A stretch of 64,000 nt of DNA from assembly GCA_964490395.1 (NCBI GenBank), contig CAZBAS010000003.1, positions 120,293-184,292 on the forward strand, read 5' to 3'. The notes beneath the pieces were generated by a model. That model saw nothing but the letters and a program-made list of their open reading frames with translations, searched no databases and was not told the DNA's origin. This document shows, one piece after another, positions 33,535-61,993 of this stretch. Source of the DNA: an uncultured Candidatus Saccharibacteria bacterium. Its GTDB lineage: Bacteria; Patescibacteriota; Doudnabacteria; UBA920. Position 1 is the first letter of the stretch, and the number at the start of each line of letters is the position of its first letter. The position numbers and the translations under genes were made by a program.

Positions 33535-35040
33535 TTATGAATTACGTAAAGAGAGCAAAACCTTTATATGGTATGCCGTAATAATTGCAGCAGTGAGCAC
33601 TAGTAACCACACTGGTATGTAAATACTGGCGGCCCAGAGGGTTACGAAGCCGTACCCAAGTGCACAGGCTATGACCAATATTGAGCGCCAAGATGATGGT
33701 CTCGCCGCCTTTGGCAACTTGTAATTTAATTGTAGCAAAAGTGGGGGATAAAGCCACATAGTAAAAGCAGAAAGGCAGGCCGAGAGCACTAACAGGAAAA
33801 AAGGTTGCTTAAATGCTGGAACAAGTAATGATAGGCATAAAATAGCTATGCCTAGAAGGGCTGCGAATATACTGAGGTGTCCGTGTGTTGCTGTTCCCAA
33901 GCGTTTAATTAGTCCTTGGTTTGATAGATTGAGTGGGTTTAAAATGCGGCTGAGTAGGCGACCAATGGCGTCGAGTATGGTCAGGTTCGCCATGATAAAT
34001 ATGAGCGTACCCGCAATGCCAAATAATGTACCAAGGTGGGGGAATAGTGCGTTTAGGGCAAGTATTTCTGCTTTGATAACTCCAAAGCCTTGCGCTGTGC
34101 CAATAGGCAATAAAATGCGTCCAAGGTAAGCAAGGAGGAATATAGAAAATACATTTGCTACAACGAACAGAAGTGCATGCTCCTTATTTATAAACGCAAA
34201 CCATTTTTTAAAGTTTGAGATTGATTCTTTGCTTTCCAATTCTCTTCGGTTTGTCATTCCGGCCCCCGAGCCGGAATCCAGGCTGGGACTAAGATGGATT
34301 CCGGATAGCCCTCGATGACTCGTGGCTTCCGGAATGACAGAGGGGGAGTTAACTCCATAGCCTTTATCTGCAATCCACTCGCTTTGCACTAAGTTGAGTG
34401 CGCCTGCCACTCCGCCGTAGGCTAGCGCGCCTACAAAATCAAAACGCGGCAGATTTTTTGGTATGTAGCCAAAATTAAAGAGGCCGCGCAGCCCTTCCCA
34501 AAAAACTCCCGCATCAAACTTTACTATAACCACAAGTACAATAATGCTTAGTGCACTGCTTAAACCGATGCGGGAAATTTTTTCTAGTATTTTATAAATA
34601 TTCGATTTCCGAAATACCAGTATTGCTAAACCGAGCAGGAGCACGGCGAGTGCTAACCCTATATTTCGTTCTTGTCCTGCAGGTACATTGAAAAGCACTG
34701 CGAGAATGTTTCCCGCCGTGCTCATCCACGCTGGCCACATGAGCGCAGCTATTACCGTGAGTCCAAAGACCGTGGCAAGCCATATTTTGTTTTGCACTAA
34801 CGCTGCTTCTACTCGCTTTCCCGTGACGAGTGTGTAGCGCTCTATTTCTATATTTACCACAAACTGCAGCAGCAGAATTATGAGTAATGGCCACAACAGG
34901 CCAAGGCCAAAGTTCGCCACCAGGCTCGGCCAGAGAAGCATTTCGCCGCCATTGAGCGATAGCGCTACAAAGACTATGCTGGGGCCCAACATAGCTAATA
35001 ACGATTTTGTGAGTGGTGGAAAGGTTTGTGCGTTTTTCAT
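33535..35040 (-). CDS. polytopic membrane protein of unknown function carrying an in-frame MITE-like insertion
   Basis: It has 12 or more transmembrane helices. The element at 34252-34339 is translated as ...PEATSHRGLSGIHLSPSLDSGSGAGM... Confidence 0.5.
   Translation of the reverse strand: MKNAQTFPPLTKSLLAMLGPSIVFVALSLNGGEMLLWPSLVANFGLGLLWPLLIILLLQFVVNIEIERYTLVTGKRVEAALVQNKIWLATVFGLTVIAALMWPAWMSTAGNILAVLFNVPAGQERNIGLALAVLLLGLAILVFRKSNIYKILEKISRIGLSSALSIIVLVVIVKFDAGVFWEGLRGLFNFGYIPKNLPRFDFVGALAYGGVAGALNLVQSEWIADKGYGVNSPSVIPEATSHRGLSGIHLSPSLDSGSGAGMTNRRELESKESISNFKKWFAFINKEHALLFVVANVFSIFLLAYLGRILLPIGTAQGFGVIKAEILALNALFPHLGTLFGIAGTLIFIMANLTILDAIGRLLSRILNPLNLSNQGLIKRLGTATHGHLSIFAALLGIAILCLSLLVPAFKQPFFLLVLSACLSAFTMWLYPPLLLQLNYKLPKAARPSSWRSILVIACALGYGFVTLWAASIYIPVWLLVLTAAIITAYHIKVLLSLRNS
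34252..34339. mobile_element. MITE-like element of the TGTCATTCCGG...CCGGAATGACA family (B1), inside a CDS
   Basis: It has terminal inverted repeats. The internal segment is the reverse complement of the 45025 copy (ccggatagccctcgatgactcgtggc). Confidence 0.5.
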
Positions 35041-35060
35041 TTTACAGTGTATGCTTCGCG

Positions 35061-35411
35061 CTAGAACACGAGAAGTAGGATGGTAATAATGGCCATGGGA
35101 ATGGCACCTACTGCGACCAAAAACGTTCCCATTTTTTCGTTGCCTTTGCTATATAACCAGAATCCGTAACACAGAGTAACAATGTTTACAAAAGTGGCCA
35201 CACCTATGGATGCAGCATTTGAGTGGTAGCTTCGTACAAAGTTAAAAAAACTAAGTCCGCTTGGGCCAAATGCTCTTTCAACTAACATTTGTCCGCCTAC
35301 GCACAGTGGCCAGACAATGTTCATGACTGCTGCAACGGTCTTTACTATTAATGCGCCATTAGGGTGGCCCTGCTGCGGTGGGGTAGGTTCTATTTTTGTT
35401 TGCGGTGTCAT
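35061..35411 (-). CDS. small membrane protein
   Basis: It has three transmembrane helices. Confidence 0.35.
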   Translation of the reverse strand: MTPQTKIEPTPPQQGHPNGALIVKTVAAVMNIVWPLCVGGQMLVERAFGPSGLSFFNFVRSYHSNAASIGVATFVNIVTLCYGFWLYSKGNEKMGTFLVAVGAIPMAIITILLLVF

Positions 35412-35430
35412 ACAGTGAACTATCCTTTAT

Positions 35431-37209
35431 TTAACTTTGCTTTTTTACAGGGAGGTCCAGTTTAATATGTAATTCTTTAAGCTGCTTTTCGTCTACGGTG
35501 CCTGGTGCGGACATCATAAGGTCTTCTGCGCTTCCGTTTTTCGGGAATGCAATAACTTCACGGATGTTGGGTTCGTCCATGAGCACCATGAACAAACGGT
35601 CCAAGCCAAATGCACAGCCGCCGTGTGGGGGTGCGCCATATTCGAACGCGCGAATCATGCCGCCAAATTTTTCGTCCACCGTAGCGCGGTCTATACCCAC
35701 AACCCCAAATGCTTTGTACATAACCTCAGGGTTAAAGTTACGAATGGCACCGCTACAAATTTCATAGCCATTCGCTACCATGTCGTACTGGTCTGCTTTA
35801 ATTTGCAACGGATCTTCAGATTCAAGCGCGGCAAGACCGCCTTGGGGCATGGAGAATGGGTTATGAGAGAAATCTACTTTCTTTTCGGTCTCGCTCCATT
35901 CGTACATAGGAAAATCGGTAATCCATGCGAGCGCCACTATGCTCGGATCCTTCAGTCCAAAATCATCACCGAGCTGGCTACGAAGTTTACCCAGTACTTT
36001 GTTTACTACACTTCTTTCGTCTGCGCCAAAGAAAACGATGTCCCCATCGCCAGCGTTGGTTTTGCGGATTATAGTCTCTATTTCACTTTCGCTCATGAAT
36101 TTGAGAATGGGGGATTTCTTTTCTCCATTTTCCAGCACTATATATGCCAAACCACCGGCGCCTTCGCGCTTTACCATTTCGGTTAGGGTGTCTATTTGGC
36201 TTCTGGTAAGTCTGCTCCCGCCTTCGCAGCGAATAGCTTTTACACAGCCGCCGTTTTTAATGGCATTGGCGAACACACTAAATTGCGTATCGGTGAGCTC
36301 TTCGGTGAGTTCAACCATTTCCATGCCAAACCGTAGATCCGGTTTGTCGCTACCGTACTTTTCCAGTGCCTCGGCATAGGGAATGCGTGGCACGGGCTTT
36401 TGCATAACCTTTTTGCCGGCGAAATCTTCTACTAAAGAAACTATGAGTGGCTCCATTTCGTTCCACACAACTTCGCCCTTGGTAGCAAAACTCATTTCAA
36501 GGTCGAGTTGATAGAATTCACCAGGGTGCCGGTCTGCACGGGGGTCTTCGTCGCGGAAGCAGGGGGCTATTTGATAGTAGCGGGGGAGGCCGCCAACCAT
36601 GAGTAATTGTTTAAACTGCTGTGGTGCTTGGGGTAAGGCGTAAAATGTACCCGGGTGGATGCGAGAAGGTACCAGAAAATCGCGTGCACCCTCTGGTGAA
36701 CTAGAAGTAAGAATAGGTGTGGTAACCTCTATGAACTCGTGCTGCATCATGTATTGGCGAATGCGCATGTTGTAGTCTGCACGAAGTTTAAGCATGCGTT
36801 GCATTTTCTCGCGACGTAGGTCAAGAAAGCGGTAGGTAAGACGCATGTCCTCGTTAATGTTGCTTTCCTGGTGAAAGATGGGAAAGGGGAGTGGCTTGCT
36901 CGTGTTTAGAACAACAAGTTCGGTAACAACTAGTTCTATGCTACCTGTAGCTATGTTAGGGTTCACCAATTTCTCGTCTCGTTTTACTACTGTGCCCGTT
37001 GCCTGGAGTACAAACTCGTCGCGCACTTTGCTCGCAACTTCAAAAGCCTCAGCGGTTTCTGGGTGGATGGTGAGTTGTACAATACCCGTATGGTCACGAA
37101 GGTCTATGAATATAAGCCCTCCGTGGTCACGAGTGCTCGCAGCCCAGCCAGCCACGGTTATTTGCTCACTGACTTTTTGAGGGGTCTCTGATGATAGTGT
37201 TCTGTGCAT
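35431..37209 (-). CDS. aspS: aspartyl-tRNA synthetase, bacterial type
   Basis: Class II motifs are present, with FRDEDPRADRHPGEFYQLD and GGCAFGLDRL at the C-terminus. The N-terminus is an OB anticodon-binding domain. Confidence 0.95.
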   Translation of the reverse strand: MHRTLSSETPQKVSEQITVAGWAASTRDHGGLIFIDLRDHTGIVQLTIHPETAEAFEVASKVRDEFVLQATGTVVKRDEKLVNPNIATGSIELVVTELVVLNTSKPLPFPIFHQESNINEDMRLTYRFLDLRREKMQRMLKLRADYNMRIRQYMMQHEFIEVTTPILTSSSPEGARDFLVPSRIHPGTFYALPQAPQQFKQLLMVGGLPRYYQIAPCFRDEDPRADRHPGEFYQLDLEMSFATKGEVVWNEMEPLIVSLVEDFAGKKVMQKPVPRIPYAEALEKYGSDKPDLRFGMEMVELTEELTDTQFSVFANAIKNGGCVKAIRCEGGSRLTRSQIDTLTEMVKREGAGGLAYIVLENGEKKSPILKFMSESEIETIIRKTNAGDGDIVFFGADERSVVNKVLGKLRSQLGDDFGLKDPSIVALAWITDFPMYEWSETEKKVDFSHNPFSMPQGGLAALESEDPLQIKADQYDMVANGYEICSGAIRNFNPEVMYKAFGVVGIDRATVDEKFGGMIRAFEYGAPPHGGCAFGLDRLFMVLMDEPNIREVIAFPKNGSAEDLMMSAPGTVDEKQLKELHIKLDLPVKKQS

Positions 37210-37338
37210 AGATATAAATGAACTTAAAATTTAAAATTGATAAGTCAAAACTTCAACTAAAAACGAATAACTTTGTAACTGGTATGTTAGGAGTTTTTAA
37301 GTTTTAATTTGAATTTTTGACTTTTGACTTTTCAGTTT

Positions 37339-37570
37339 AAAAATAAAACACCCTTACAAACTAATCATCGTTAAATGACTAGTTTGTAAGGGCGCTCAAA
37401 ATCTGGCGCGGTGCCACCTTACTTTGTACTCTTGTGCCCTTCGCTATGCTTAGGGCCTACGGCTATAACGGGCGTTCCCGGAGAGGTCTAGTCCTGAATG
37501 AGTGCTTAGTGCTTAGTTCTTTAGTGCGCAGGAGTTTACTAGGCACTAGGTACTACTAACTAGGAACTAA
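37339..37570 (-). promoter_or_regulatory. T-box riboswitch leader for aspS
   Basis: The leader RNA has AGUAAGGUGGCACCGCGCC, which matches the T-box core GGUGGNACCGCG. The bulge UGGC would pair with GCCA of a discriminator-G tRNA-Asp. An alternative 18-bp terminator hairpin (cccuuacaaacuagucau...augauuaguuuguaaggg) plus a U-run competes with the antiterminator. Confidence 0.6.
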
Positions 37571-37770
37571 TTAAGTTTCTTCTCTCAGCTCGGCTGTGTT
37601 TGCAGCGTCGATGCTTTTACTAAAGTAATTATACCAAATCTGCATTTCTTTCACAAATCTTGCTGCGGTATACTGGCCCTTGATTTATTTATGAAAATAT
37701 GTTTTAATACTCAGTCGCATCCCTTATGGGACGACGGAGTAAAATTGCTTGTCGCAAAAGAGGAGGTGCT

Positions 37771-37962: not shown

Positions 37963-38107
37963 CAGTAAGGTGGTCGACTTCTGGTGGTGCAGATTTATGC
38001 ACCACTTTTTTATTTACCCTTTTTTATAAAATTGCCCGTGGTATAATATTTTTTGATAATAAAAGAATAGCGCCTGTCGGCCCATAGGACCAATCACAAA
38101 TACAAAT

Positions 38108-38326
38108 ATGGCCTTAAAAAAGATAGTGCTCGACTTGGAGACTCATCCAACTCCGCCAAGCCTTCGTCGGACTTGGGCTATTATCGTAACAAAGTAAATT
38201 TAAACGAAAGTTAGCATGCTCAAGAAAATTATATTAGACCTCGAAACCCGTCCAGCCTTCGCTAAAGCTTCGGCGGATTTCGTCTCTTGAGTGAAATAAA
38301 TTATTGTATTTACTATTCCTGACTGT
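38108..38326 (+). repeat. two degenerate tandem copies of the first ~110 bp of the downstream exonuclease gene
   Basis: 38108-38145 is 37 of 38 identical to 38327-38364 (atggcYttaaaaaagatagtgctcgacttggagactca). A second, diverged copy starts at 38216 (MLKKIILDLETRP...). Each copy ends in a stop after about 25-30 codons. Confidence 0.5.
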
Positions 38327-38908
38327 ATGGCTTTAAAAAAGATAGTGCTCGACTTGGAGACTCAAAATTCATTTGATGATGTAGGCGGTAGGGGCAAGAA
38401 TCATTTGCTTAAAATTTCTGTGTGCGGAGTGTATTTTTCAGATACCGATAAGTACGCTATATACGAAGAGCATGAAATGGGTAAGCTCGCACCGCTCTTG
38501 CAAACCGCAGATCAAATAATAGGATATAACATAAAGGACTTTGACTTTGAGGTGCTGCAACCGTATTTGAACTTTAATATTTTTGAAATTCCGTATTTAG
38601 ACATTCTAGAAGAAATAGAAAAAGTGCTTGGTCACCGCATTCGTTTAGAAGCGGTTGCGCAAGGTACGCTAGGAAGTGGCAAGTCTGGCACGGGTTTGCA
38701 AGCTATTCTATATTGGCGCAATGGACGTTTAGATGAGTTAAAAAAATACTGTTTGGATGACGTAAAAGTGACCAAACAAGTCTACGAGTACGCCATGAAA
38801 AATAAAAAACTCCTTTTTTCCGACTATTTCAGCATAAAAGAAATCCCCATAACCTTTGCAGAAGCAAAGGAGAGGGGGGAGGTGTACCACCAAGCTGGAC
38901 TGTTTTAG
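38327..38908 (+). CDS. DEDD-family 3'-5' exonuclease (DnaQ-like)
   Basis: It has the exo I motif LDLET, exo II YNIKDFD and an exo III H/D region. Confidence 0.65.
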   Translation: MALKKIVLDLETQNSFDDVGGRGKNHLLKISVCGVYFSDTDKYAIYEEHEMGKLAPLLQTADQIIGYNIKDFDFEVLQPYLNFNIFEIPYLDILEEIEKVLGHRIRLEAVAQGTLGSGKSGTGLQAILYWRNGRLDELKKYCLDDVKVTKQVYEYAMKNKKLLFSDYFSIKEIPITFAEAKERGEVYHQAGLF

Positions 38909-38969: not shown

Positions 38970-40046
38970 ATGAAACTTTCTCGTAGCAAAACTACCTATG
39001 CGCCCCTTGTTGTATTGGGGCTATTTATATTGGCCCTGTTTTTACCGCAGGTCTTTTCAGGAAATTGGGTTCTCCCACAGTTTTTTAGCATTGGACCCAT
39101 AACCATTCATTACTACGGCATAACCATGGCGCTTGCTGTGGCTTCTGCGTGGTGGCTTGCAAGTAAACGTGCTCCGCAGTATGGCCTTACTCAAGAGCAA
39201 GTAGATACTTTATCGCTTTGGCTGGTAGTAGGTGGGCTTATTGGCGCGCGGCTCTACCACATTGCTAGTAGCTGGCAGTATTACTGGCAGTACCCATTAG
39301 AAGCGCTTAAGATTTGGCACGGCGGCCTTTCCATATTCGGCGCTCTTCTTGGCGGTTTTATTGTTTTGCTGTTCAGCGCAACAGCAAAAAATAAACTGTC
39401 AATATCAACAGGGGGAGGCACTAGTGTCATTGCGAGCGATGCTTTGAGAACGAAGCAATCTAATACTATGACGGCGGATGAGATTGCCGCGTCGCAGACT
39501 CCTCGCAATGACAAGAGGGAGAGCGGGGTTGCGTCTTCTGCCCCCATTCAACATTCTGCATTCAACATTCTGCATTTACTAGATTGGCTTGCCCCGTCTG
39601 TCCTCCTTGGCCAAATTATTGGTCGCTTTGGGAACTTTTTTAACTACGAGGCCTTTGGATATCCTACAAATCTGCCGTGGAAAATGTTTGTGCCAGAATA
39701 TTTTAGACCGAGCGAATATATAAGCGCTCTATATTTCCATCCATTATTTTTGTACGAGGCGCTGGGAAATACTTTTATATTTCTTGGCTTACTCTATTTT
39801 TTCCGGGCCAATCGCATCAAGAAAAGTGCGAAGCCAGTACCTGCTGGCGCGCTATTCTTTAGCTATCTAATTTTGTATAATGTACTTAGATTTGCTCTAG
39901 AACATTTACGTATAGACAGCACGTTCTTGGTTTACAGTATACGACTCAATGCTCTGGTCAGTGGGTTCTTGGTGGTATTGAGCGCAGCAGGCTTGTATTG
40001 GCTGCAGAAACGTGCAAATGGTGCCACAGCAGTTAGCCCCACTTAA
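38970..40046 (+). CDS. lgt: prolipoprotein diacylglyceryl transferase carrying an in-frame ~90-bp MITE-like insertion
   Basis: It has the Lgt signature HYYGITMALAV..GGLIGARLYH..WHGGLSIFGALLGG. The insert is translated as ...SVIASDALRTKQSNTMTADEIAASQTPRNDK... Confidence 0.85.
   Translation: MKLSRSKTTYAPLVVLGLFILALFLPQVFSGNWVLPQFFSIGPITIHYYGITMALAVASAWWLASKRAPQYGLTQEQVDTLSLWLVVGGLIGARLYHIASSWQYYWQYPLEALKIWHGGLSIFGALLGGFIVLLFSATAKNKLSISTGGGTSVIASDALRTKQSNTMTADEIAASQTPRNDKRESGVASSAPIQHSAFNILHLLDWLAPSVLLGQIIGRFGNFFNYEAFGYPTNLPWKMFVPEYFRPSEYISALYFHPLFLYEALGNTFIFLGLLYFFRANRIKKSAKPVPAGALFFSYLILYNVLRFALEHLRIDSTFLVYSIRLNALVSGFLVVLSAAGLYWLQKRANGATAVSPT
39425..39513. mobile_element. MITE-like element of the TGTCATTGCGAG...CTCGCAATGACA family (A1), inside lgt
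   Basis: The terminal inverted repeats are tgtcattgcgagcga and ctcctcgcaatgaca. The internal part is a gcaatct...agattgc inverted repeat. Confidence 0.5.
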
Positions 40047-43525: not shown

Positions 43526-43588
43526 AATATAATTTTCAATTTTTAATTTTGCAATTTTTAATGTGAGGCAGGAGCAAAGTTTCGGTAC

Positions 43589-43615
43589 TGTCTAGATGGG
43601 CACCATCTAGACAGT
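43589..43615. repeat. short palindrome of the ATGGGCACCAT family
   Basis: ctgtctagatgggcaccatctagacag. Confidence 0.4.
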
Positions 43616-43632
43616 AGAAGTATAAAATCTTT

Positions 43633-43735
43633 TGTCATTGCGAGGAGGCTTTGTGACGAAGCAATCTAATGAATGATTAAGAGAAATATTAGATTGCCAC
43701 GTCATTCCGTAAAGCCGGAACTCCTCGCAATGACA
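43633..43735. mobile_element. MITE-like element of the TGTCATTGCGAGGAG family (A2), intergenic
   Basis: The terminal inverted repeats are tgtcattgcgaggag and ctcctcgcaatgaca. Confidence 0.5.
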
Positions 43736-43954
43736 GTCGCTAGGCATACTGCTAATCGCATGAGTGGTTTCGAAGGTATATCGATATTACTCACGCGCTC
43801 AGCAAGTGGGACTGGCGCGATTATGATTGGCCCGTGAACGCCACGGTTGCCAATTTTCGCGCCAGTTCCGGCGCACGAACAGTTCCTTGAAATATACAAA
43901 CTCGGTGGCTACCGCATGCGCGGCGCCATCTTTTTGCTACAAAAGGGGGGCAAA

Positions 43955-44914
43955 ATGACTTATCGACGAAAAATCAATCTTTTATTCATTCTCGTAGGCA
44001 TTCTATTGGTGTTGGCAGTATGTATGCTGCCTGCATTGTTCGATTCGCTTCACGCGCAATCCTTGCCACAAGGGCCCGCGGTTGTTAAGCTTCAGGTTTC
44101 GGGTCGAAATGACGACTCTAACCTGTTGTCTGAACGATTGCAAGGGTGGCTCGGCCCTCGCGCCGCAGTGGACGTGTCGCCTGACGCCTCCGTTGACGCT
44201 ACTGTGGTCTTGGACTTTCTGAGATTCGACAGTAGCTATAAGCCGCAACAGCGTTCGATTATCCGCGAAGGCGGTGCAGATGGTGCGAGTCGTGGAATCG
44301 GTGATCTAGGCCAAGCAACTGCTGGTGAGCTTGAAAGAAACGGCGGCATTGCGGGTCGTGCCATTGGCGCCGCAATTCGGACTGGTTCTAACACCGCCAG
44401 CCAAAAGACCCAGCAGAAAATTTTATATGGAGCCCCCAAGTACGAAAGTGTTCAGCTTCAGTATAAATACTGTCTGGGGGATAACTGCAAGCCTCTGAGT
44501 GCCACCCTGTATGCCCAAGTTGAAAGACAAACGGATTCTACAGGACAGTGGAGTAAGTTTAAGGTTCTGGAAGTGGGGCACGATCCCCAGAACCTTCAAC
44601 CGCTTGAACCCGTAATGGACCTTGGTGAGGGCTACTCGGCCCTATTTCCCGCCCGCATGCAGGAGGGGCTCTTTGCCCTCATGATGCATACGAACCCTCG
44701 AACGCAGGAGGACGAGCCGCGTTGGCCATTGGTACGGGGGGACGAAATGTTCGTGCGCCTTCGGCAACTTGTCGAAACTAAAGCAGTTGCTAAGACCACG
44801 CGAGAGAGGGCAGTTACTACAGTTGCCCCTCCGACAACGCGGCCAACGAAGCCGCCAAAGTATAATGCCCCAGAAAGGGTGGGGCCAAACACCGCCACGG
44901 GTCGCAAGCCCTAG
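43955..44914 (+). CDS. hypothetical membrane-anchored protein, GC-rich
   Basis: The ORF is about 58-60% GC against a ~48% background. It has an N-terminal transmembrane helix and a Pro/Thr-rich C-terminus. The start is uncertain (43847 or 43955). Confidence 0.45.
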   Translation: MTYRRKINLLFILVGILLVLAVCMLPALFDSLHAQSLPQGPAVVKLQVSGRNDDSNLLSERLQGWLGPRAAVDVSPDASVDATVVLDFLRFDSSYKPQQRSIIREGGADGASRGIGDLGQATAGELERNGGIAGRAIGAAIRTGSNTASQKTQQKILYGAPKYESVQLQYKYCLGDNCKPLSATLYAQVERQTDSTGQWSKFKVLEVGHDPQNLQPLEPVMDLGEGYSALFPARMQEGLFALMMHTNPRTQEDEPRWPLVRGDEMFVRLRQLVETKAVAKTTRERAVTTVAPPTTRPTKPPKYNAPERVGPNTATGRKP

Positions 44915-45024
44915 CGGTAGGCTAGCCGTCGATTAAACAAAGCGCAGTGAGCGCACGGGCCATTAATTTGGTTTCGTGTACTTGCTGCGCTTTTTCGTTT
45001 ATTTAAATAGATTAACCTCAGTAT

Positions 45025-45129
45025 TGTCATCCCGGAAGCCACGAGTCATCGAGGGCTATCCGGGATCCATACCTTAGAAATACTGGATTCCAGTCTTCCC
45101 TCGCAAAGCCTCGTGGAAACTGGAATGAC
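45025..45129. mobile_element. MITE-like element of the TGTCATTCCGG family (B2), inverted relative to B1
   Basis: Its first ~40 bp (tgtcatcccggaagccacgagtcatcgagggctatccgg) is the reverse complement of the end of the 34252-34339 copy, with 1 mismatch in 39. Confidence 0.5.
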
Positions 45130-45258
45130 GGAGGGGGTGGCCACGAAAAACGTTGTATTTTCATTTTGAGGGAATTTGGTGGGGGCATTCGTGTGAGGTC
45201 GGTTTTTTGTTTATGGCTAATTGGCGTATACTAAAAGCACTATTTAATTACTATATTT

Positions 45259-46200
45259 ATGCATGGTGAGACGCGTGATTTTGGACAAATAGCAAATACA
45301 TCTGAGCAAAAGCCGCAAGATGAAAAGCCTAAGGTAGGTCGTCGTTCGTTTATCAAACAGACCAGTGCGGCCATGACTGGGTTGGCGCTCGGTGCAACAG
45401 AAGTGTTTGGACAAAATCCACAGTATCGTCCTCCTGAAAGGGTTCGCCCTCACAATCCAGAACAGAAACCGGTAGAAGCACCCAATCAAACGGAAGCCAC
45501 GGAGGTTAAATATGGTTACAATCGACTTATAGTAGAGGTGCCCCCCACTATGACAGATACCAAGATAAGCTCTCTTGGTGCAGACCTTACTACTGCGCTT
45601 ACTGGAGGCGGGTATGGAGTGCATCACGTAGAGGTAGTTGTCACTCGCAACGCAAAAGAACCGCAGTACAAAGGTGCGCCCGTGCTTAAGTGGGAAGCTC
45701 AGTCAGAAATGATCCGGCAACCAGTTATTAAAGCGAGCGGGAAGCAGGCATTCGGTAGGGCTGCTCGCGACGTGCTTACTGGGGCACACGGCATGCCGGG
45801 GCCGGCAACGCCCAGTGGTGAGGTTGGCGCATCGGGAGATGGTGTGTACCATGTAGAAGGAAAGTTGGTTTTTGGAGCGTTTTACGATGGCGTGAGTCAA
45901 AATCTAACAGTGCATGCAGAACATAAGGGTGGGGGTCACTGGCGGCACACCGTAGATACTGGCTCTGAGCATGCACTCGTCACTTTAAATAATAGTGAAA
46001 GACTTTCTGAGGCAGAGCAGCAAGAAGCAGCTCTGGTGTTCTTACTGAAAACTAGAAAAGGGCAACTTTCTACGCTATCTAAGATTGCGGATCAGTTTAA
46101 ACGTGATGAAGCGCGTCGGACTATTGATGGTGTGGGTTCCTCAACTACAGAGCAATCAGATGAGGCTCAGGGTAATAGAAGAGTGCGACCTCGTAACTAG
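45259..46200 (+). CDS. hypothetical Tat-secreted protein, GC-rich
   Basis: It has a twin-arginine signal GRRSFIKQTSAAMTGLALGA. Confidence 0.5.
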   Translation: MHGETRDFGQIANTSEQKPQDEKPKVGRRSFIKQTSAAMTGLALGATEVFGQNPQYRPPERVRPHNPEQKPVEAPNQTEATEVKYGYNRLIVEVPPTMTDTKISSLGADLTTALTGGGYGVHHVEVVVTRNAKEPQYKGAPVLKWEAQSEMIRQPVIKASGKQAFGRAARDVLTGAHGMPGPATPSGEVGASGDGVYHVEGKLVFGAFYDGVSQNLTVHAEHKGGGHWRHTVDTGSEHALVTLNNSERLSEAEQQEAALVFLLKTRKGQLSTLSKIADQFKRDEARRTIDGVGSSTTEQSDEAQGNRRVRPRN

Positions 46201-46384
46201 ATTTGTATTGGAATGTTCGGGTAGTAATGGGCCCGCACCCAATAGCTACGGGCGTGCATGTAGCCATGTAGTTAAATCTATCCATAAAGCGGTAGCGGCG
46301 ACTGTTGACTAAACAGGTATTTTTGCTAATAATTATATGATTTTAGGTAAGGTATTTTATTCCTAGTTATTTAGCAGTAGACAT

Positions 46385-49631: not shown

Positions 49632-49639
49632 TGAAGAAA

Positions 49640-49737
49640 TGTCCAATTTCTAATATCTAATATCTAATGTTCGGACTATAGGGTTAAGAATTTTCATTAG
49701 GAATTAGAAATTAGGTATTAGACATTAAACGCCAGTT
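49640..49737. repeat. AT-rich inverted-repeat element of the TAATTCCTAATTTCTAAT family, upstream of the subtilase gene
   Basis: aatttctaatatctaatatctaat is paired with attaggaattagaaattaggtattagacatt. Confidence 0.5.
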
Positions 49738-49743: not shown

Positions 49744-51402
49744 TTGATTACTAGATATCGTTTAATGTACAACTATAAAAGAAATTTAAAAAAACTGATT
49801 ATCTATAGCACTACCTTGCTTGCTCTAGCTTGTTCTGCCGTTCCCGTGCAGGCATTTTCGGTGCATGCGGGGGCGATTGATGTGAACGATCCTGGCTTTA
49901 CGTCGGATTCACTTAATATAGATAGGCAGTGGGGGCTTTCTAAAGCTAAATTTATCGATGCATGGAATAAGACTACGGGCAGTAGTTCTGTTGTGGTTGC
50001 GGTTATAGATACGGGCATAGACGAAACCCACGAAGATTTGTCGCGCACTACTTTTATCCCGGGGTTTGATTTTATTACCAGCACCGTACTTACTCCTGGA
50101 ACTGACTCTGATGATAATGGCCACGGAACCCTTGTTGCAGGTATTCTTGGCGCAGTAGCAAACAATGGCATAGGGATAGTTGGTACCAACTGGCAGGTGG
50201 CTCTTATGCCGCTGAAAGCGCTCGATAGTAATGGTTCCGGCACATCTGAGAATGTTGCTAAAGCAATTGTGTGGGCCACTGACCATGGCGCGTTTATTAT
50301 AAATCTTAGTTTGGGCGGGGTGGGTTTTGGGCAAGACGTTGGCCTTGCAAAAGCAATTACTTACGCATTTCAGCACAATGTAGTTATAGTCGCTGCCGCG
50401 GGTAATGACTCTGCTCCAAACGGGGGTAACTTAGACCAAGACCCGGTATTTCCTATCTGTGATGATAACGGTCAGAACATGGTGATAGGCGTGGCAGCGG
50501 TGGATGCACTAGATCAAAAGCCTTCTTTTTCAAATTACGGAAAAAACTGCGTAGATGTTTCAGCTCCTGGTAAGCGAATACTTTCAACTATAAGTCGCGA
50601 CCCTATAACGCGAGCAAAATCCCCAAATTCGTACGCGTACGCCTCTGGCACTTCGCTGGCGGCGCCGTTTGTGAGTGGCCAGGCAGCATTGCTAAAAGCG
50701 CTGTTTCCAAATGCAACGAACCGTCAGATACGCGATCGGATTATTTCTACTACGGACCCTATAGACGCGCCCAACATAAGCCTTTGTAACGGGCCGTGTG
50801 CAGGAAAGATTGGTACTGGGCGTATAAATGTTGCGAGCAGCCTCTCAAGCACTATTTTGCCAGAAATCATAGCAGAAGGAGATTTGGTGCAGGTTATTGA
50901 GACTGGAGAAATTTTTGTAATTAGTGGCGGTAAGCGGCTTCATGTGAGCAGCTTTGTACAGCAGCAACGGTACGGAAACAGTGCTCCTCGGCAAGTATAT
51001 ACCTGGCAAGTGTTGTCGTTTCCGGAGGGACAATATGCGCAGCCTGCAGATGGAACTTTGGTGAAAAAAGCGAGCGGCTCTACGGTGTATTTTATGCAAA
51101 ATGGCATAAAGATGCCTGTATCGTACGACGTATTTGTGCAGCGAAAATTTACGTTTGATAGGGTGTTCACTCTTGGTGATGTTGAGATGGACGCGTGGCT
51201 CACGGGAAAGTTTTTACCGCCGAGTGACGGGGCGTTGGCGCGCTCACGAACCAATCGCACAGTCTACTGGGTGGTTGGTGGTGTATTACACCCTATTACT
51301 GCAGCATTCTATGCAAATCGCGGTCTTTCTGTATTTCCCATTGTGTACTTTAACGATGGTGATATAAAACAATTTCCAAAAGGTGAAGCATATGTGAGGT
51401 AA
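49744..51402 (+). CDS. secreted subtilisin-like serine protease (S8) with C-terminal repeat domains
   Basis: It has the catalytic triad regions VAVIDTGID, HGTLVAGILGA and GTSLAAPFVSG. Confidence 0.85.
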   Translation: MITRYRLMYNYKRNLKKLIIYSTTLLALACSAVPVQAFSVHAGAIDVNDPGFTSDSLNIDRQWGLSKAKFIDAWNKTTGSSSVVVAVIDTGIDETHEDLSRTTFIPGFDFITSTVLTPGTDSDDNGHGTLVAGILGAVANNGIGIVGTNWQVALMPLKALDSNGSGTSENVAKAIVWATDHGAFIINLSLGGVGFGQDVGLAKAITYAFQHNVVIVAAAGNDSAPNGGNLDQDPVFPICDDNGQNMVIGVAAVDALDQKPSFSNYGKNCVDVSAPGKRILSTISRDPITRAKSPNSYAYASGTSLAAPFVSGQAALLKALFPNATNRQIRDRIISTTDPIDAPNISLCNGPCAGKIGTGRINVASSLSSTILPEIIAEGDLVQVIETGEIFVISGGKRLHVSSFVQQQRYGNSAPRQVYTWQVLSFPEGQYAQPADGTLVKKASGSTVYFMQNGIKMPVSYDVFVQRKFTFDRVFTLGDVEMDAWLTGKFLPPSDGALARSRTNRTVYWVVGGVLHPITAAFYANRGLSVFPIVYFNDGDIKQFPKGEAYVR

Positions 51403-51464
51403 GTATTTCAGCTGGTTTACTCTTGAACGAAACAAACTTCATTTGTGTAGGGTATACTATATAT

Positions 51465-51556
51465 AAATATCTAATTCCTAATTTCTAATGTCTAAAAAAA
51501 GACAAAGGAAAATCCGAACATTTGGAATTAGAAATTAGGAATTAGAAATTCATTTG
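51465..51556. repeat. AT-rich inverted-repeat element of the same family, downstream of the subtilase gene
   Basis: atctaattcctaatttctaatgtct is paired with ggaattagaaattaggaattagaaatt. Confidence 0.5.
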
Positions 51557-53426: not shown

Positions 53427-53443
53427 TCAGTTGTCAGTAAGCC

Positions 53444-55542: not shown

Positions 55543-55599
55543 ATCGAATCGGTTTTTCTAAGCCCCAATATTATATCATGACGGTGTGAAAGTATGGTC

Positions 55600-55775
55600 T
55601 GTCATTGCGAGGAGGCCAGGCTCTGATGGTTGACGCGGCAATCTGCACTCCAATGTCATTCTGGGGGAGACTTTGTGACCGAAGAATCTAGATCCTTCGT
55701 CGCTCAGATGCATTCGCTTCTCAGGATGACAAATGCAAAGGGGTGAATGGTCACAGGGCGTTGCTCGCAATGACA
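55600..55775. mobile_element. MITE-like element of the TGTCATTGCGAGGAG family (A3), a longer nested copy
   Basis: The terminal inverted repeats are tgtcattgcgaggag and gttgctcgcaatgaca. The interior contains a second tgtcattctg...caggatgaca pair. Confidence 0.5.
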
Positions 55776-55818
55776 AATGGTAAGGGTGTTGCTACAATAC
55801 TCTCATACATAAGTAAGT

Positions 55819-55992
55819 ATGGGTATGGAAACTCGTCATTTTGAAAAGTCTGAACCTGCTTCTCCGCTTTTAGATGAAAGCAAGCAAGATGATTTTATGG
55901 ACACAAGACGCACGTGTCCACGGTGCGGTGCGAAAAATCCAATCGACGCATATTATTGTACCCAATGTGGTGTTTTGCTTCGAGATAAATAA
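55819..55992 (+). CDS. small zinc-ribbon protein (about 57 aa)
   Basis: CPRCGAKN....YYCTQCG is two CxxC pairs. Coordinates are within 1 nt. Confidence 0.35.
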   Translation: MGMETRHFEKSEPASPLLDESKQDDFMDTRRTCPRCGAKNPIDAYYCTQCGVLLRDK

Positions 55993-55995
55993 AGT

Positions 55996-57495
55996 ATGGC
56001 AAAAGTTTCAAGTAATATTTTTTGGCTTTCTATCTCTCGAGTAGTAGGTTTGGTACTGCTGTTTTTTGCGTACACCCAACTGTTTAGGTATTTGGGTCCA
56101 TATGGCACTGGTCAGTACCAGTTTGTGCTGTCTTTGGTAACTATATTTGGCATTATTATTGACCTTGGAATTTCTCAGTATGTAACTAAAAAGATTGCCG
56201 AAGACCATAGTAGTGCACCAAAATATTTTTATAACTTTTTAGCGGCAGAGGTAATACTCGCAGCAGTAGTGTACGGGCTTCTCGTGCTCTACGTGTTTGC
56301 TCGGGGATACGAGCCAGTAGTACGTGAAGCGGCTATGGTGGCGGGCGGGGGACTCTTTTTATATGGACTTACAGTGCCGTTTCTTGCGGTACTTTCTGGT
56401 TTCCAAGAACTGCGTAAAGTAGCAATAAACAACTTTGTTGCTTCTCTTGTGAATGTGGTCATCATTCTCACTGCGGTGTACTTTAGGCATTATATAGTCT
56501 ACTTAGCGTTGAACCAGGGGATTGCTTCGGCATTTTCTTTGGCTTTGTACTACGGACATGTACGCGCACACATCCCTGGGCTTAAGCTCCGGCATGCCAT
56601 AGATGCATTTGATTTTTCTTTGCTTAAAAAAATACTGCGCGCTGCAGCACCCTTTGCGCTTTTGGTTAGTTTTAGCACTATCTACAATCGGGTAGATGTG
56701 GTTATTATTACTAAACTATTGGGGTATGAGGCAACAGGCTTGTATACGACCGCCTATAAGATTGTAGACTTAACTAACTTTTTTCCTGCAGTAGTGTCGC
56801 ACTCGCTCTATCCTGCGCTGGCCGCCCTTATGGCTAAAAAAGCCTTTGGCGAAGTGCGCAATAGTTTAGAACGCTATGTACGGTTTATGATTGCCATTGC
56901 ACTGCCGCTGGGCGTGGGTGGGAGTTTGCTTGCAAAGCAGCTCATATTAGTGCTCACGAGCGGAGATGTGCGCTTTTTACCTTCGAGCAGTGTACTGGCT
57001 ATTTTGGTATGGGCCATTGTTATATTGTTTGTGTACGTTACTGCCAATGCCCTGGTAACCTCTCAGCTTACTAAGTGGGCGGTCGCTATTACGGGAGCAA
57101 ATGTCATTGTAAATGTAGTGGGCAATTTTCTACTGGTTCCGCATTATGGCATTAAGGGTGCCGCAGTGATGACTGTGTGCTCCGAGTTTCTCCAGGGTGC
57201 ATTTTATTTTTACTTTATAAAAAAGAATATTACAGACTTCAAGTTACTGGGCCAGTTTATAAAACCGATCCTCGCAGCCGCGGTTATGGGCGTAGTGTTG
57301 TGGTTTATTCGCGACTGGTCACCATTGCTGGTACCGCTGGAGGCAAGTACACGGCACTTGCTGCCCCTTATTTTAAACCTTGCCGTTGTTGGCGGTGTTG
57401 GACTTTTGGCCTATGTGGCAGCGCTCGGCGCACTAAAATTCTTTACTTCTGAGGATCTCCAGTTCCTTAAGCGATTGTTTCGTCGCACTGTTTAA
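55996..57495 (+). CDS. Wzx-type oligosaccharide flippase (polysaccharide biosynthesis protein family)
   Basis: It has 12-14 transmembrane helices. The N-terminal WLSISRVVGLVLLFFAYTQLFRYLGPYGTGQYQFV is typical of the Wzx/PST family. Confidence 0.8.
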   Translation: MAKVSSNIFWLSISRVVGLVLLFFAYTQLFRYLGPYGTGQYQFVLSLVTIFGIIIDLGISQYVTKKIAEDHSSAPKYFYNFLAAEVILAAVVYGLLVLYVFARGYEPVVREAAMVAGGGLFLYGLTVPFLAVLSGFQELRKVAINNFVASLVNVVIILTAVYFRHYIVYLALNQGIASAFSLALYYGHVRAHIPGLKLRHAIDAFDFSLLKKILRAAAPFALLVSFSTIYNRVDVVIITKLLGYEATGLYTTAYKIVDLTNFFPAVVSHSLYPALAALMAKKAFGEVRNSLERYVRFMIAIALPLGVGGSLLAKQLILVLTSGDVRFLPSSSVLAILVWAIVILFVYVTANALVTSQLTKWAVAITGANVIVNVVGNFLLVPHYGIKGAAVMTVCSEFLQGAFYFYFIKKNITDFKLLGQFIKPILAAAVMGVVLWFIRDWSPLLVPLEASTRHLLPLILNLAVVGGVGLLAYVAALGALKFFTSEDLQFLKRLFRRTV

Positions 57496-57507
57496 CTCAC
57501 ACACAAC

Positions 57508-57551
57508 AGTCTGTTCGCAATTTAAGCGGCCGCTTAAATTGCGAACAGACT
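57508..57551. terminator. perfect 44-bp palindromic terminator
   Basis: agtctgttcgcaatttaagcggccgcttaaattgcgaacagact. Confidence 0.65.
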
Positions 57552-57565
57552 TTTAAGAGCTGTAC

Positions 57566-58009: not shown

Positions 58010-58244
58010 ATCCTATGGCCCTCCTAACAGAAGATGCTCTTCTGTTTGCATACTGAATGCCGTACTTAATTGGCAATGGACTTATATCCTAAGTATGGTT
58101 TATAAGTCCTAGCTCGATTGTGTATTTGGTCACTTGCCAAAATTTCTTTGTTCTGGCAAGCTTGCGGTAGAACAACCTTGGTTAATAAGTATATTTACCA
58201 GGAAAATACCAACACCTTACATTCCCTGATCAAGGAGGCGCCTT

Positions 58245-58487
58245 ATGGCAAGGCAATCGCAAGATCCGGAGCCAGGCAACTGGTTTTATAAAAGGTTGGG
58301 CGACATATGTGTTCGTATGGAGTATGCGTTTGTTGCTGGTGCGTACCGTTGGGTACAATCAGATGATCAGCCTACTCAGTTCACACCGAATCGCACACCA
58401 TCATATGCCAACGATCTATGCGGATCGTGCGGCAACCTAAAATGGCTCAATCGGTGCCCCCAGTGCAAGGGGTACAAGAAACCTTAG
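58245..58487 (+). CDS. small Cys-rich hypothetical protein
   Basis: CGSCGNLKWLNRCPQCKG. Confidence 0.3.
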   Translation: MARQSQDPEPGNWFYKRLGDICVRMEYAFVAGAYRWVQSDDQPTQFTPNRTPSYANDLCGSCGNLKWLNRCPQCKGYKKP

Positions 58488-58553
58488 CCCGCCATCATAA
58501 CAATTTTAGATGGAGTTACGGGCTTTTATTTATGGTAGATTTAGTGGTCCTGT

Positions 58554-58651
58554 TTTCCCCCTAAGATAGGGGAAGTTAGATGGGCAGGAGCTAATAGTTT
58601 CGTGGTTCATACCACCCCTAACCCCTCCTATTTTAGGAGGGGAACAAATGC
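58554..58651. repeat. composite palindromic repeat P4, near-identical to 20030-20135
   Basis: ttttccccctaagataggggaagttagatggg is followed by cataccacccctaacccctcctattttaggaggggaacaaatgc. Confidence 0.55.
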
Positions 58652-58711
58652 TGTAATGGTTGGGGTTTGGTGTATTTTGTACCTATAGTTTTTTGTTGTT
58701 ACAATATACGT

Positions 58712-59908: not shown

Positions 59909-60117
59909 CGGCTTATTATTTTGATGTGCTCCATACTTGTAACGCTGGCCAGGACCTGACCCGCGGCGCTACTAATAATAAGTGTGCCATCTTTTAGGGT
60001 TAATATGCCCTTGTGGATTACGAAATCAACCTTGCCGTCGGGCATTAATTGGCCAACTTTTACTGTAGCCATTAATCTGCTAACACCCAGTGCGGTATAG
60101 ACTCTATGCTTGGTCAT
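59896..60117 (-). CDS. hypothetical small protein (73 aa)
   Basis: ORF only. Confidence 0.3.
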   Translation of the reverse strand: MTKHRVYTALGVSRLMATVKVGQLMPDGKVDFVIHKGILTLKDGTLIISSAAGQVLASVTSMEHIKIISRHFA

Positions 60118-60229
60118 TTGTTGCCTCCTTTGGGGACGTCAGAAAGTATCTCTATCTTAGCGGAATAATAACAGGCTATTCATAAAAACGCGAATATTCC
60201 CATTTTTACTTTATTTATCTTGATAACTC

Positions 60230-61993
60230 ATGTTGAGCACCTCATTTACTAACCATAAATTTTTTAAAAATCAATCCATACTTATTTTGCTACTCTGGCA
60301 GACGCTTTCCGTGTATCTTATGGCCGTGGGAACGTGGCCTGCGTGGGTGGCTTGGGTGAATGTTGGGCTCATTATTTTATTTATTGTGCTCAGACCTGCT
60401 TTCGAAGGTCTTTTGCTTGCCGTGGGGTCCATTGCTTTTTATGTGGTGCTGCCGAGCCATTTTTCTGACACCCTATCCATGTGGCGACCTGTGGTGGGTG
60501 TATTGTTTTTAAAAACGGTTTGGGAATGGTGGTTTGTTTCTTCTCCTAGGGTAGGCGGAGCTAGAGGGGGTGCGAGCGCTCATACCACACCCAACCTCTC
60601 CTATCTTAGGAGAGGAGTAAATGCCGCTCGTAGTATAGTTTTGAACTTTCATAATTCCCTCTACACCTATGAAAAATTTGGTGCCGCGTTATTTGTTTTA
60701 GCCATACTATCGCTTGCACTTGCGCGATACCCGCTTCGTGGCGCATCGCAGCTTGTTTTTTTGCTCAACACAGCGTTGCTCTATCCTATTGTAGTGTGGG
60801 CTGTTAAAAGCCGTGACCAGTTTATTCGCGTGCTTAGGTACGGCGCCCTATCTACGGGGGCCATCATAGCTATTGGATATGTACAATTTACCGCAACACT
60901 GTTTAGCGTAGCGTATTACTTTTGGCAATATTGGGCGCTGCGTGTGGCAACGTTGTACTATGGGTTGCCGCTTGCTAAAGTGCTGCAGTATTCAAACTCT
61001 TGGGTTACGGTCCAGGGCGAAGCAAAAACCCTTCGCATGTTTAGTATTATGCCGAGCAGTCATGCCTTTGCTATGGTCTGCGTATTGTTTTTAGCGTTCG
61101 CGTTACCATTGTTGTATGTGTCATCCTCGCGAAGGCGGGGATCTAACTCGCCTACAAGCGAGCAAAAAGCCGGTACTCTGTTGTCGGCTGGTGGACCGAC
61201 GTGGATTCCCGATCGGGTCGGGAATGACAGAAGAGGCAGGCTTTGGCTGGGAGTTGCGTTGGCGTGCTTGGCACTGATTGTTTCTGGAACGCGTGGGGTG
61301 TGGGCTGGTATGGTGCCAGTGTTTATTATTGTTGCATTACTCTACAAGATAAAAAACCTTAAGCTTACTGAGCTGCTTAGGCCCGCGCTGGCCGCCATGT
61401 TACTTGCGATAATTTTATTTGAAGCATCACCGTTGTTGGATCGTGGGTTTGCTTGGGTACGAAACGCAAGCGGAGAAGCGACCTTGGATAGAGTAGAAAG
61501 TATTATTAACCCCGAAGAAACATCGAATGCTGGAAGGCTCGAAATGTGGAGGGCTGCGTCAAAGTATGCGCTGCATCATCCGTTTGGGGTAGGGTATGCT
61601 AACTTTGTAGTCACTCTTTCTACAACTGCCAAGGACGTGAGTTTTGACCAGGCCGCAAGCCAGGAAAACAAACTGTATCAACTTCCTCAGCGTTACGTCA
61701 CAGCTCACAGTCTGTACCTGCAACTGCTGGTTGAGCTGAGTGCGATAGGTCTTATACTGTTCGGACTGTTCTGGCTAAGTTTTTTCTACCGCATGTGGGA
61801 TTACGTACGATCTCGGGCCTACAGCATAAGCCCCGAAACCATATATATTGCAAGCCTTTGCGTGGTATTCCTCTGGTTTCTTGCCTATGGCGTATTTGAT
61901 GTGACTTGGCTTAATGATAAGATATTACTGTATACCTTTCTAGCGTTAGGCCTCGCGAGGATTGCAGTGTCCACCACAAGCAGCGCCGATTAA
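60230..61993 (+). CDS. O-antigen ligase (Wzy_C)-like polytopic membrane protein carrying two in-frame repeat insertions
   Basis: It has a 12-TM topology with a large loop. The inserts at 60538-60625 and 61129-61229 are translated without stops as ...AHTTPNLSYLRRGVNAA... and ...SSSRRRGSNSPTSEQKAGTLLSAGGPTWIPDRVGNDRRG... Confidence 0.55.
   Translation: MLSTSFTNHKFFKNQSILILLLWQTLSVYLMAVGTWPAWVAWVNVGLIILFIVLRPAFEGLLLAVGSIAFYVVLPSHFSDTLSMWRPVVGVLFLKTVWEWWFVSSPRVGGARGGASAHTTPNLSYLRRGVNAARSIVLNFHNSLYTYEKFGAALFVLAILSLALARYPLRGASQLVFLLNTALLYPIVVWAVKSRDQFIRVLRYGALSTGAIIAIGYVQFTATLFSVAYYFWQYWALRVATLYYGLPLAKVLQYSNSWVTVQGEAKTLRMFSIMPSSHAFAMVCVLFLAFALPLLYVSSSRRRGSNSPTSEQKAGTLLSAGGPTWIPDRVGNDRRGRLWLGVALACLALIVSGTRGVWAGMVPVFIIVALLYKIKNLKLTELLRPALAAMLLAIILFEASPLLDRGFAWVRNASGEATLDRVESIINPEETSNAGRLEMWRAASKYALHHPFGVGYANFVVTLSTTAKDVSFDQAASQENKLYQLPQRYVTAHSLYLQLLVELSAIGLILFGLFWLSFFYRMWDYVRSRAYSISPETIYIASLCVVFLWFLAYGVFDVTWLNDKILLYTFLALGLARIAVSTTSSAD
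60538..60625. repeat. diverged copy of the composite palindromic repeat (P5), inside a CDS
   Basis: cataccacacccaacctctcctatcttaggagaggagtaaatgc resembles cataccaccccaacccctcctattttaggaggggaacaaatgc. Confidence 0.5.
61129..61229. mobile_element. MITE-like element (B3) with TGTCATCC...GGAATGACA termini, inside a CDS
   Basis: The terminal inverted repeats are tgtcatcctcgcgaagg and ccgatcgggtcgggaatgaca. Confidence 0.45.

Follow-up and report, generated by a model that had tools for sequence, protein, structure and literature searches.

Rickettsia palindromic elements (RPEs) are in-frame, tolerated, loop-located and decaying repeats, as far as the account in PMC10969869 goes (after Ogata et al. 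2000, 2002). The NTS of Neisseria (CGTCATTCCCGCGMAVGCGGGAATCYRG, which contains dRS3) and the Ssn-related motifs (SRMs) share a GTCAT-hairpin-ATC anatomy; SsnA, a single-domain GIY-YIG nuclease of 94 aa (CDD cd10448), cleaves them in single-stranded form, and SRMs reach their highest abundance in symbionts, among them Rickettsia, Wolbachia and Neisseria (Chenal et al. 2025, PMC11893778). Here, we describe hairpin repeats of the form TGTCAT…ATGACA in a 64,000-nt stretch of DNA (hereafter the window) from an uncultured Candidatus Saccharibacteria bacterium of the GTDB lineage Patescibacteriota, Doudnabacteria, UBA920 (GenBank assembly GCA_964490395.1, contig CAZBAS010000003.1, positions 120,293 to 184,292 of the forward strand), several of which lie in frame within genes for membrane proteins. 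All positions given below without a contig name refer to the window. We read the repeats as non-autonomous assemblies of a hairpin module that multiplied recently, invaded coding sequences in the manner of RPEs and spread through single-stranded DNA by means of an enzyme acting in trans, and we assign this reading a probability of about 0.7. A literature search returned no description of such elements in the Candidate Phyla Radiation (CPR)/Patescibacteria.

An initial annotation of the window, made from its sequence, had listed six copies of these elements. All six are present where it had placed them, with two refinements: the left end of the copy in the gene encoding a Wzy_C protein lies at 61119 (TGTCATCCTCGCGAAGGCGGGGATC) rather than at 61129, and the copy at 55600-55775 is not a single element, a second one being nested at its centre. 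The elements measure 88–176 bp and fall into three families, A, B and C. Family A comprises a copy on the plus strand at 39425-39513 (modules 39426-39460 (+) and 39482-39512 (-)), which reads in frame as SVIASDALRTKQSNTMTADEIAASQTPRNDK in the prolipoprotein diacylglyceryl transferase Lgt, an intergenic copy at 43633-43735 downstream of a sortase gene, and the outer element at 55600-55775, which occupies an intergenic divergent promoter region and is interrupted in its central loop by the inner element at 55654-55731 (TGTCATTCTGG...CAGGATGACA). The copy at 43633 is the best preserved, with a 15-bp outer stem and the inner palindrome GACGAAGCAATCT...AGATTGCCACGTC. Family B comprises a copy on the minus strand at 34252-34339 (modules 34253-34278 (+) and 34297-34338 (-)), read in frame as ...SVIPEATSHRGLSGIHLSPSLDSGSGAGMTN... 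in a 501-aa membrane protein, an intergenic copy at 45025-45130 (modules 45026-45067 (+) and 45086-45129 (-)), and the plus-strand copy at 61119-61229 (modules 61120-61143 (+) and 61204-61228 (-), separated by a 60-nt spacer with two further small hairpins), which gives ...VSSSRRRGSNSPTSEQKAGTLLSAGGPTWIPDRVGNDRR... in frame in the Wzy_C protein. The copies at 34252 and 45025, which the initial annotation had recognized as the same element in opposite orientation, have an end in common that extends over 46 nt (arms 34294-34339 and 45025-45070, 96% complementary); the left module of the 45025 copy and the right module of the 34252 copy have 96% identity. Family C is represented by an in-frame repeat on the plus strand at 60522-60634 (hairpins TTCCCCTAAGATAGGGGAA and CCCCTCCTATTTTAGGAGGGG), which is read as ...SSPRVGGARGGASAHTTPNLSYLRRGVNAA... 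and, like the 61119 copy, lies in the Wzy_C protein, in its loop 1, by an intergenic reference copy at 20022-20146 and by an intergenic copy at 58537-58661 upstream of a glycosyltransferase gene. An intergenic cluster of four tandem NTS-like hairpins at 14464-14555 (+) contains the sequence GGTCATTCCCGCACATGCGGGAATCCAG at 14503-14530. A pair of small hairpins, CCCGCTnAGCGGG … CACGCTnAGCGTG, is found directly upstream of tRNA-Thr and tRNA-Glu (7282-7313 and 29502-29533), and its third copy lies within this cluster, at 14472-14503.

Each element end is a self-contained small hairpin with the layout GTCAT, stem, loop, stem, ATC, in which the stems are TTGC…GCAA in family A and TTCC…GGAA in family B. 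In each of the elements at 34252, 39425, 43633, 45025 and 61119, two such modules form an inverted, head-out pair and are spaced by 18–60 nt. The inverted termini of 11–15 bp (TGTCAT…ATGACA) are thus real, but the two families of terminal inverted repeats that had been deduced from them are explained by the inverted pairing of one hairpin module of the NTS/SRM type. Since the published strict SRM pattern gave no hits in the window, a relaxed module definition was used, with shuffled sequences as control. The window contains the terminus GTCATTSC 14 times (3.3 ± 1.9 expected), a number reached in none of 100 shuffles, and the module GTCATTSC-N(8-38)-GSAATC, which covers families A and B, has 10 matches against an expectation of 0.03. 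A separate structural scan of the window gave 10 hits, with 1.3 ± 1.1 expected. The elements fold as hairpins with z between -3.0 and -8.4, the latter value belonging to the 43633 copy, and the 14464-14555 cluster reaches z = -9.0; the composite nature of 55600-55775 accounts for its z of only -1.4. The modules are exchangeable in a mix-and-match fashion: the partners of module CCGGAAGCCACGAGTCATCGAGGGCTATCCGG differ between 34252, 45025 and two Saccharibacteria loci (L128 and L130). No Rfam family covers the elements, and blastn returned no plasmid match for the 43633 copy.

The initial annotation had labelled the elements as MITE-like (MITE, miniature inverted-repeat transposable element). 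As classical MITEs, they would be deletion derivatives of an insertion sequence (IS), moved by a DDE transposase that binds TGTCAT…ATGACA and leaves a target-site duplication, and their small size, their multiple copies, their short inverted TG…CA termini and their varying presence among relatives would all agree with such an origin. Nevertheless, we consider it improbable, and the label is not supported. No target-site duplication was seen at the copies in the window, and 28 of the 33 full doublets from the window and the fetched loci lack a flanking direct repeat, the rest showing chance matches of 1–2 nt. Pfam detected no transposase, Y1 transposase or RAYT domain in the larger ORFs (open reading frames) of the window, about 50 of which were scanned. 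In a search for autonomous elements across 1.2 Mb of loci, defined as inverted modules 250–4000 bp apart that enclose an ORF, no parent IS or transposase was found between the modules. Moreover, the supposed termini are the 5' flanks of self-contained modules that also occur singly and co-oriented, and the stems differ between families while their pairing is kept, and therefore it is structure rather than sequence that appears to be recognized.

The three genic copies of the initial annotation lie, as it had proposed, within uninterrupted ORFs, which was confirmed by ORF and Pfam analysis: the ORF of the 501-aa polytopic membrane protein (33535-35040 (-), no Pfam hit), lgt (38970-40046 (+), 358 aa, PF01790, E 5e-61) and the O-antigen-ligase-like Wzy_C ORF (60230-61993 (+), 587 aa, E 1.5e-19). 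The family C repeat at 60522-60634, which it had missed, is a fourth in-frame copy, located in the same Wzy gene; the genic copies thus number four, in three genes for membrane proteins of an essential-looking kind. The Pfam domain of Lgt is matched in two stretches, and the protein is longer than most of its homologues (280–320 aa), as is the Wzy_C protein in comparison with its nearest element-free orthologues (541–548 aa). All inserts are read without a stop, although the gain of about 30 residues originally attributed to each is not uniform: it amounts to 19 aa in the 501-aa protein, 37–47 aa in Lgt and about 25–30 aa in Wzy. The lengths of the genic elements (88, 89, 111 and 113 bp) are mostly not multiples of three, but the net differences from empty orthologues (about +57, +114 and +75 bp) all are, and at the Wzy site a 1-nt indel some 12 nt downstream of the element appears to restore the frame. 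Every element, genic or intergenic, has between one and three stop-free frames out of six, which would allow some insertions to survive in coding DNA.

The inserts are located in loops, as had been suggested. In Lgt, residues 139-200 correspond to residues 120-125 of E. coli Lgt, the six-residue loop between transmembrane helices 3 and 4 (TM3-TM4), and in the AlphaFold model residues 146-195 form a coil with a predicted local distance difference test (pLDDT) score below 50 between the confident helices 122-146 and 200-221. The E. coli loop carries positive charges, which makes a cytoplasmic position of the TM3-TM4 loop probable. The insert in the 501-aa protein occupies the short, variable linker that joins two blocks of high conservation (...ADKGYGVN / linker / ESISNFKKW...), and the alignment of homologues places those in Wzy in variable linkers or loops. 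Apart from the inserts, the host proteins are intact and strongly conserved and keep their catalytic motifs. Predicted peptides spanning host-element junctions are GGGTSVIASDALR, TKQSNTMTADEIAASQTPR and GSNSPTSEQK.

Syntenic contigs were retrieved through the nearest Lgt and Wzy homologues, whose source names are Candidatus Doudnabacteria and Patescibacteria group. These names, together with the gene content, assign the window to Patescibacteria (CPR). Five of them (L004-L007 and L132) share about 72–86% nucleotide identity with the window and one (L131) about 90%. The blastn alignments between the window and these relatives are colinear and broken at the elements: 34227-34349 of the window corresponds to 64 bp in the relatives, 39370-39540 to 55 bp, 43546-43748 to about 103 bp with an unrelated hairpin, 55580-56004 to 137 bp and 61118-61228 to 35 bp. 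In about 55 kb of unique sequence from the syntenic relatives of 72–86% identity no module was detected, against 10 in the window. Neither L004-L007 nor the four closest homologues (P0002-P0005, 62–74% identity, 311–321 aa) have the Lgt insert, and in these homologues residues about 140-190 are lacking. Three relatives of the 501-aa protein also lack the insert, their linker having 20 residues instead of 39, and the 34252 element is absent from L004-L007, where a 64-bp heptamer-like linker is found instead. The 43633 element is missing from L004 and L007 and the 55600 element from L132, while the 45025 element lies in a region of gene replacement that cannot be aligned to the relatives. The 61119 insert is absent from 17 of 19 aligned Wzy homologues; the two others are L131, which shares it, and a homologue with a different element in the same loop.

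Some neighbouring features of these sites deserve mention. The tract of 7-nt units GAAATTGGAAATTGAGAATTGG is translated in the linker of the relatives' 501-aa protein, exactly at the site of the family B element in the window. Arrays of 7-nt units (AATTAGG/AATTAGA, GAATTAT) also form inverted pairs around genes in the window, for example the S8 peptidase gene at 49744-51402; they are found at 2811-2906, 7232-7266, 49638-49726 and 51463-51553, and also at 5444-5553, 11789-11823, 12189-12233 and 33510-33544. An ORF for a 57-aa zinc-ribbon protein (CPRCG…CTQCG; 55819-55992 (+)), located between the nested element and the flippase gene, is absent from L132. The replaced region is a cassette (43748-46380) preceded by the 43633 element and split by the 45025 element, with a raised G+C content (0.52 over 44001-46000), and its ORFs (43847-44914, 355 aa; 45259-46200, 313 aa) have no similarity to the single ORF of 266/277 aa that the relatives carry there.

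Given that the copies are absent in relatives, and that distant Patescibacteria carry different inserts, the inserts are recent and lineage-specific rather than ancestral. The opposite view, that they represent ancestral loop sequence or an artefact of assembly, draws on the facts that metagenome assemblies can be chimeric at repeats and that Logan contigs end near repeats. We regard its probability as negligible, because close orthologues lack the segments and the same sequences also occur as intergenic repeats. Furthermore, an identical Lgt protein with the insert is encoded on three independent Logan contigs from three sequencing runs, and thus the insert is not an artefact of one assembly, and the Wzy insert was recovered from a separate sample. 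A 39-nt direct repeat (38107-38145 and 38326-38364, 97% identical), which duplicates the start of the ORF 38327-38908 about 220 bp upstream, lies ahead of lgt, and the Logan contigs with lgt start inside its downstream copy.

The same loops have received different inserts in different lineages. The blastn alignment with L132 breaks exactly at 61118 and 61228, and L132 carries at this very site its own 35-nt hairpin (10827-10861, CGCGCAATT…AATTGCGCG), translated in the Wzy loop; the 61119 site thus attracts hairpins of unrelated sequence. Loop 1 of Wzy contains the family C repeat in the window, a complete family A element in L131 and, in L132, what appears to be the decayed right half of a family A element (RSQSL). 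In more distant Patescibacteria, the corresponding Lgt and Wzy loops contain other repeat-derived peptides (VIARSE…RRG, EIASS…LPPRNDK, PSYLRRG, GAGIQ and SLRLGERES…), which indicates that these loops have been hit repeatedly and independently. RPE peptides, for their part, have VIP…GIQ or …ARND motifs.

Between the window and L131, the Wzy element that they share has 4 differences in 111 positions and the remainder of the gene 124 in 1118 (Fisher p = 0.013); all four differences in the element change the amino acid. These numbers are small, and the pattern hints at constraint or homogenization at the level of the nucleic acid rather than at selection on the peptide. The nonsynonymous changes could also be expected if the inserts were not translated at all, being removed from the mRNA, bypassed by ribosomes or part of decaying pseudogenes, and hairpins of this strength could in principle stall ribosomes or be cleaved. 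We find this explanation very improbable, since the four genic copies keep an open frame with a net change in length that is a multiple of three, the host proteins are intact apart from the inserts, and a phage portal gene and numerous independent lineages show the same.

Further copies of the termini, which the initial annotation had anticipated, occur in the window, in one Saccharibacteria metagenome-assembled genome (MAG) and in at least 120 contigs of IMG/VR, in which the family A terminus pattern matched at least 120 stretches. A scan of genome contigs with a 20-mer specific to the shared family B module returned two copies in the Saccharibacteria MAG and one chance hit. Among the matches listed, many IMG/VR contigs carry single, co-oriented modules; all modules point in the same direction in L013 (6/6), L037 (8/8), L064 (7/7), L083 (10/10), L097 (7/7) and L115 (5/5). 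This co-orientation, as opposed to the inverted pairs of the window, suggests that the modules either have a role tied to one strand or insert in a strand-specific way. Four related IMG/VR contigs among the matches listed (L093, L020, L114 and L121) carry family A modules in frame (…NEIATPSARNDSPFVSLRGAAHRSNL…) in the middle of the gene for an SPP1-type phage portal protein (in L093 at 7359-8843 (-), Pfam E 4e-23), and thus phages carry the modules and tolerate them in coding sequence. The N-terminal part of this gene also accounts for a 190-aa ORF that recurred between inverted modules in the search for autonomous elements and is not a transposase. The module family is therefore widespread and phage-borne, with a density that depends strongly on the lineage.

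Taken as non-autonomous hairpin-module repeats, the elements would be short, structure-defined repeats derived from one module, 5'-GTCAT-stem-loop-stem-ATC-3', mostly arranged as inverted head-out pairs, that may have multiplied recently in this lineage of Patescibacteria. They would land in intergenic DNA, in other elements and in DNA encoding permissive loops of membrane proteins. As the G+C-rich stems are almost free of stops, some insertions would leave an open frame or be repaired to one; the surviving genic copies would be read through, adding about 20–45 disordered residues to a loop, and selection would remove all other genic insertions. Given the lack of duplications, the recognition of structure (different stems within the same flanks) and the nesting of elements, we infer, as the best explanation, a single-strand mechanism that recognizes hairpins. 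A trans-acting enzyme encoded elsewhere in the genome may recognize the hairpin in single-stranded DNA, in a mode akin to that of REP (repetitive extragenic palindromic) sequences and REPINs with RAYT or of NTS/SRM with the Ssn GIY-YIG nuclease, and not to DDE cut-and-paste. RAYTs are IS200/IS605-like Y1 transposases that mobilize REPs and REPINs.

Several observations weigh against this explanation. The insertion borders with respect to the relatives are not clean and, as the relatives have diverged by 15–25% and carry other sequence at the sites, insertion is not separable from replacement or recombination. Translation of the inserts is predicted solely from the integrity of the ORFs. In the 33 doublets, the left flank is rich in pyrimidines and the right flank in purines, a bias that could reflect a target preference or a true element slightly longer than the one delimited here. 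The published SRM pattern, HGTCWYN(0-2)YYVSBRHN(0-5)WNVSBRGN(0-2)RNCYNB, has no hits in the window, where the copies narrowly miss it, their loops being longer or position -1 being a G. No mobilizing enzyme was identified among the ORFs of the window or in the loci. Two tandem ORFs for single-domain GIY-YIG proteins of 81 and 88 aa (28776-29021 and 29089-29355, both (-), Pfam E about 1e-14), which adjoin tRNA-Glu, were considered as the driver and rejected, as no modules flank them and their homologues show no link to modules: 311 kb of flanks around 81 metagenomic homologues contained only one weak module, and no homologue was found among the 120 module-bearing viral loci listed. The best matches of these proteins in PDB are UPF0213 proteins, NCBIfam has no name for them, and an orthologue is kept in a syntenic relative without modules.

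The same data bear on the possibility that the elements are SRMs in the strict sense, that is, targets of an Ssn-type GIY-YIG nuclease that are maintained by the host, modulate DNA uptake or recombination at variable surface genes and owe their spread to recombination or gene conversion rather than to transposition. This would be in keeping with the NTS-like anatomy, with the copy at 14503-14530, with the clustering of the elements in a surface-polysaccharide and cell-envelope region where they bracket the replaced cassette, and with the conservation of the L131-shared copy above that of its host gene; as far as the available account goes, Saccharibacteria are also naturally competent. Even so, we deem it unlikely, in view of the failed spatial association of the GIY-YIG genes of the window, of the missing hits to the published pattern and of syntenic relatives that retain the GIY-YIG gene and have no modules.

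A broader idea, which we put forward tentatively and consider doubtful at present, is that the coding palindromes are no peculiarity of Rickettsia but one manifestation of a pan-bacterial GTCAT-hairpin-ATC superfamily (NTS/SRM), mobilized via single-stranded DNA by a small nuclease and not a transposase, carried by phages from host to host and re-entering existing hairpins by preference, which would create hot-spot loops in envelope proteins. If this were true, the modules would be a recurrent source of new, fast-evolving surface-loop sequence in the envelope proteins of Patescibacteria. New in the present case are RPE-like coding palindromes in another phylum, their NTS/SRM-like modules and the recurrent landing loops in envelope proteins. 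If such repeats are as common in Patescibacteria as the alignments suggest, many of the lineage-specific insertions of CPR proteins would be selfish DNA and not adaptations, which would matter for the annotation of protein families, structure prediction and phylogenies in this large uncultured group. The assembly of metagenomes is affected as well, as contigs break at these repeats. With several families, nested copies, and filled and empty orthologous sites, the locus offers a tractable system for studying how hairpin repeats move and how loops tolerate them.

Other features of the window are recorded here in their own right. A group I intron (Rfam hit 10004-10215) lies in the region 9935-10260 (-), inside a tRNA gene missed by ARAGORN, whose 3' half with the T-arm and CCA is located at about 9940-9990 and for which about 10216-10255 is a plausible 5' half; just upstream there is an ORF with a helix-turn-helix (10247-10846). 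Group I introns in tRNA genes of Patescibacteria have recently been described (PMC13011429). Four paralogous ORFs encode 23S rRNA intervening-sequence proteins (PF05635, four-helix bundle; 11823-12215, 12879-13256, 13880-14224 and 32497-32865 (-)). The last of these belongs to a segment of about 440 bp (32457-32897), inserted between scpA and a tRNA-edit gene, that is absent from L005 and L007, and thus these small PF05635 genes also look mobile.

Among described systems, the comparison with RPEs made in the initial annotation is apt: both concern palindromic multi-copy families that lie in frame within genes, in loops, and are absent from orthologues. To the extent of the account in PMC10969869, both systems consist of palindromic repeats of about 100–150 bp in several families, are found in frame in unrelated housekeeping genes, where they are read through and tolerated at surface or loop positions, and decay with time in a bacterium with a reduced genome and host dependence. 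The likeness is one of behaviour; the Rickettsia felis plasmid pRF has no modules. As far as that account shows, they differ in their hosts, Patescibacteria here and Alphaproteobacteria for RPEs, and in the repeated occupation of the same loops by different families across lineages seen here.

ORF-fusing MITEs (ERIC, Correia and Coxiella QMITE1/2) are likewise small, structured and multi-copy, with occasional overlap of ORFs; within the coverage of PMC5896051 and PMC10969869, however, they have target-site duplications and/or IS-related ends and mostly overlap the termini of genes rather than the middle of conserved enzymes. With REPs and REPINs, the elements share inverted doublets of short imperfect palindromes, a conserved 5' flank, the absence of target-site duplications and, presumably, movement in trans by a single-copy gene. 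REPINs are extragenic by definition, whereas four copies here are genic; in addition, the window has no RAYT/Y1 transposase, and the flank is GTCAT instead of GTAG.

In anatomy, the closest resemblance is to NTS/SRM, with which the modules share the 5' flank GTCAT, the hairpin ATTCC…GGAAT, the 3' flank ATC and a clustering around envelope and variable genes; at 14503-14530, 25 of 28 nt are identical to the NTS consensus (three mismatches), with no such match expected by chance. The cassette and its elements are, moreover, reminiscent of the NTS-gene-NTS arrangements of Neisseria. The loops and stems are often longer here, the GIY-YIG genes of the window do not show the association of ssn-type genes with their motifs, and inverted doublets and genic translation are not described in PMC11893778. 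We do not file the elements as members of NTS/SRM, because they neither match the strict pattern nor show an association with an ssn gene; the present case may nonetheless join the coding palindromes of Rickettsia and the NTS/Ssn hairpins of Neisseria through a shared module.

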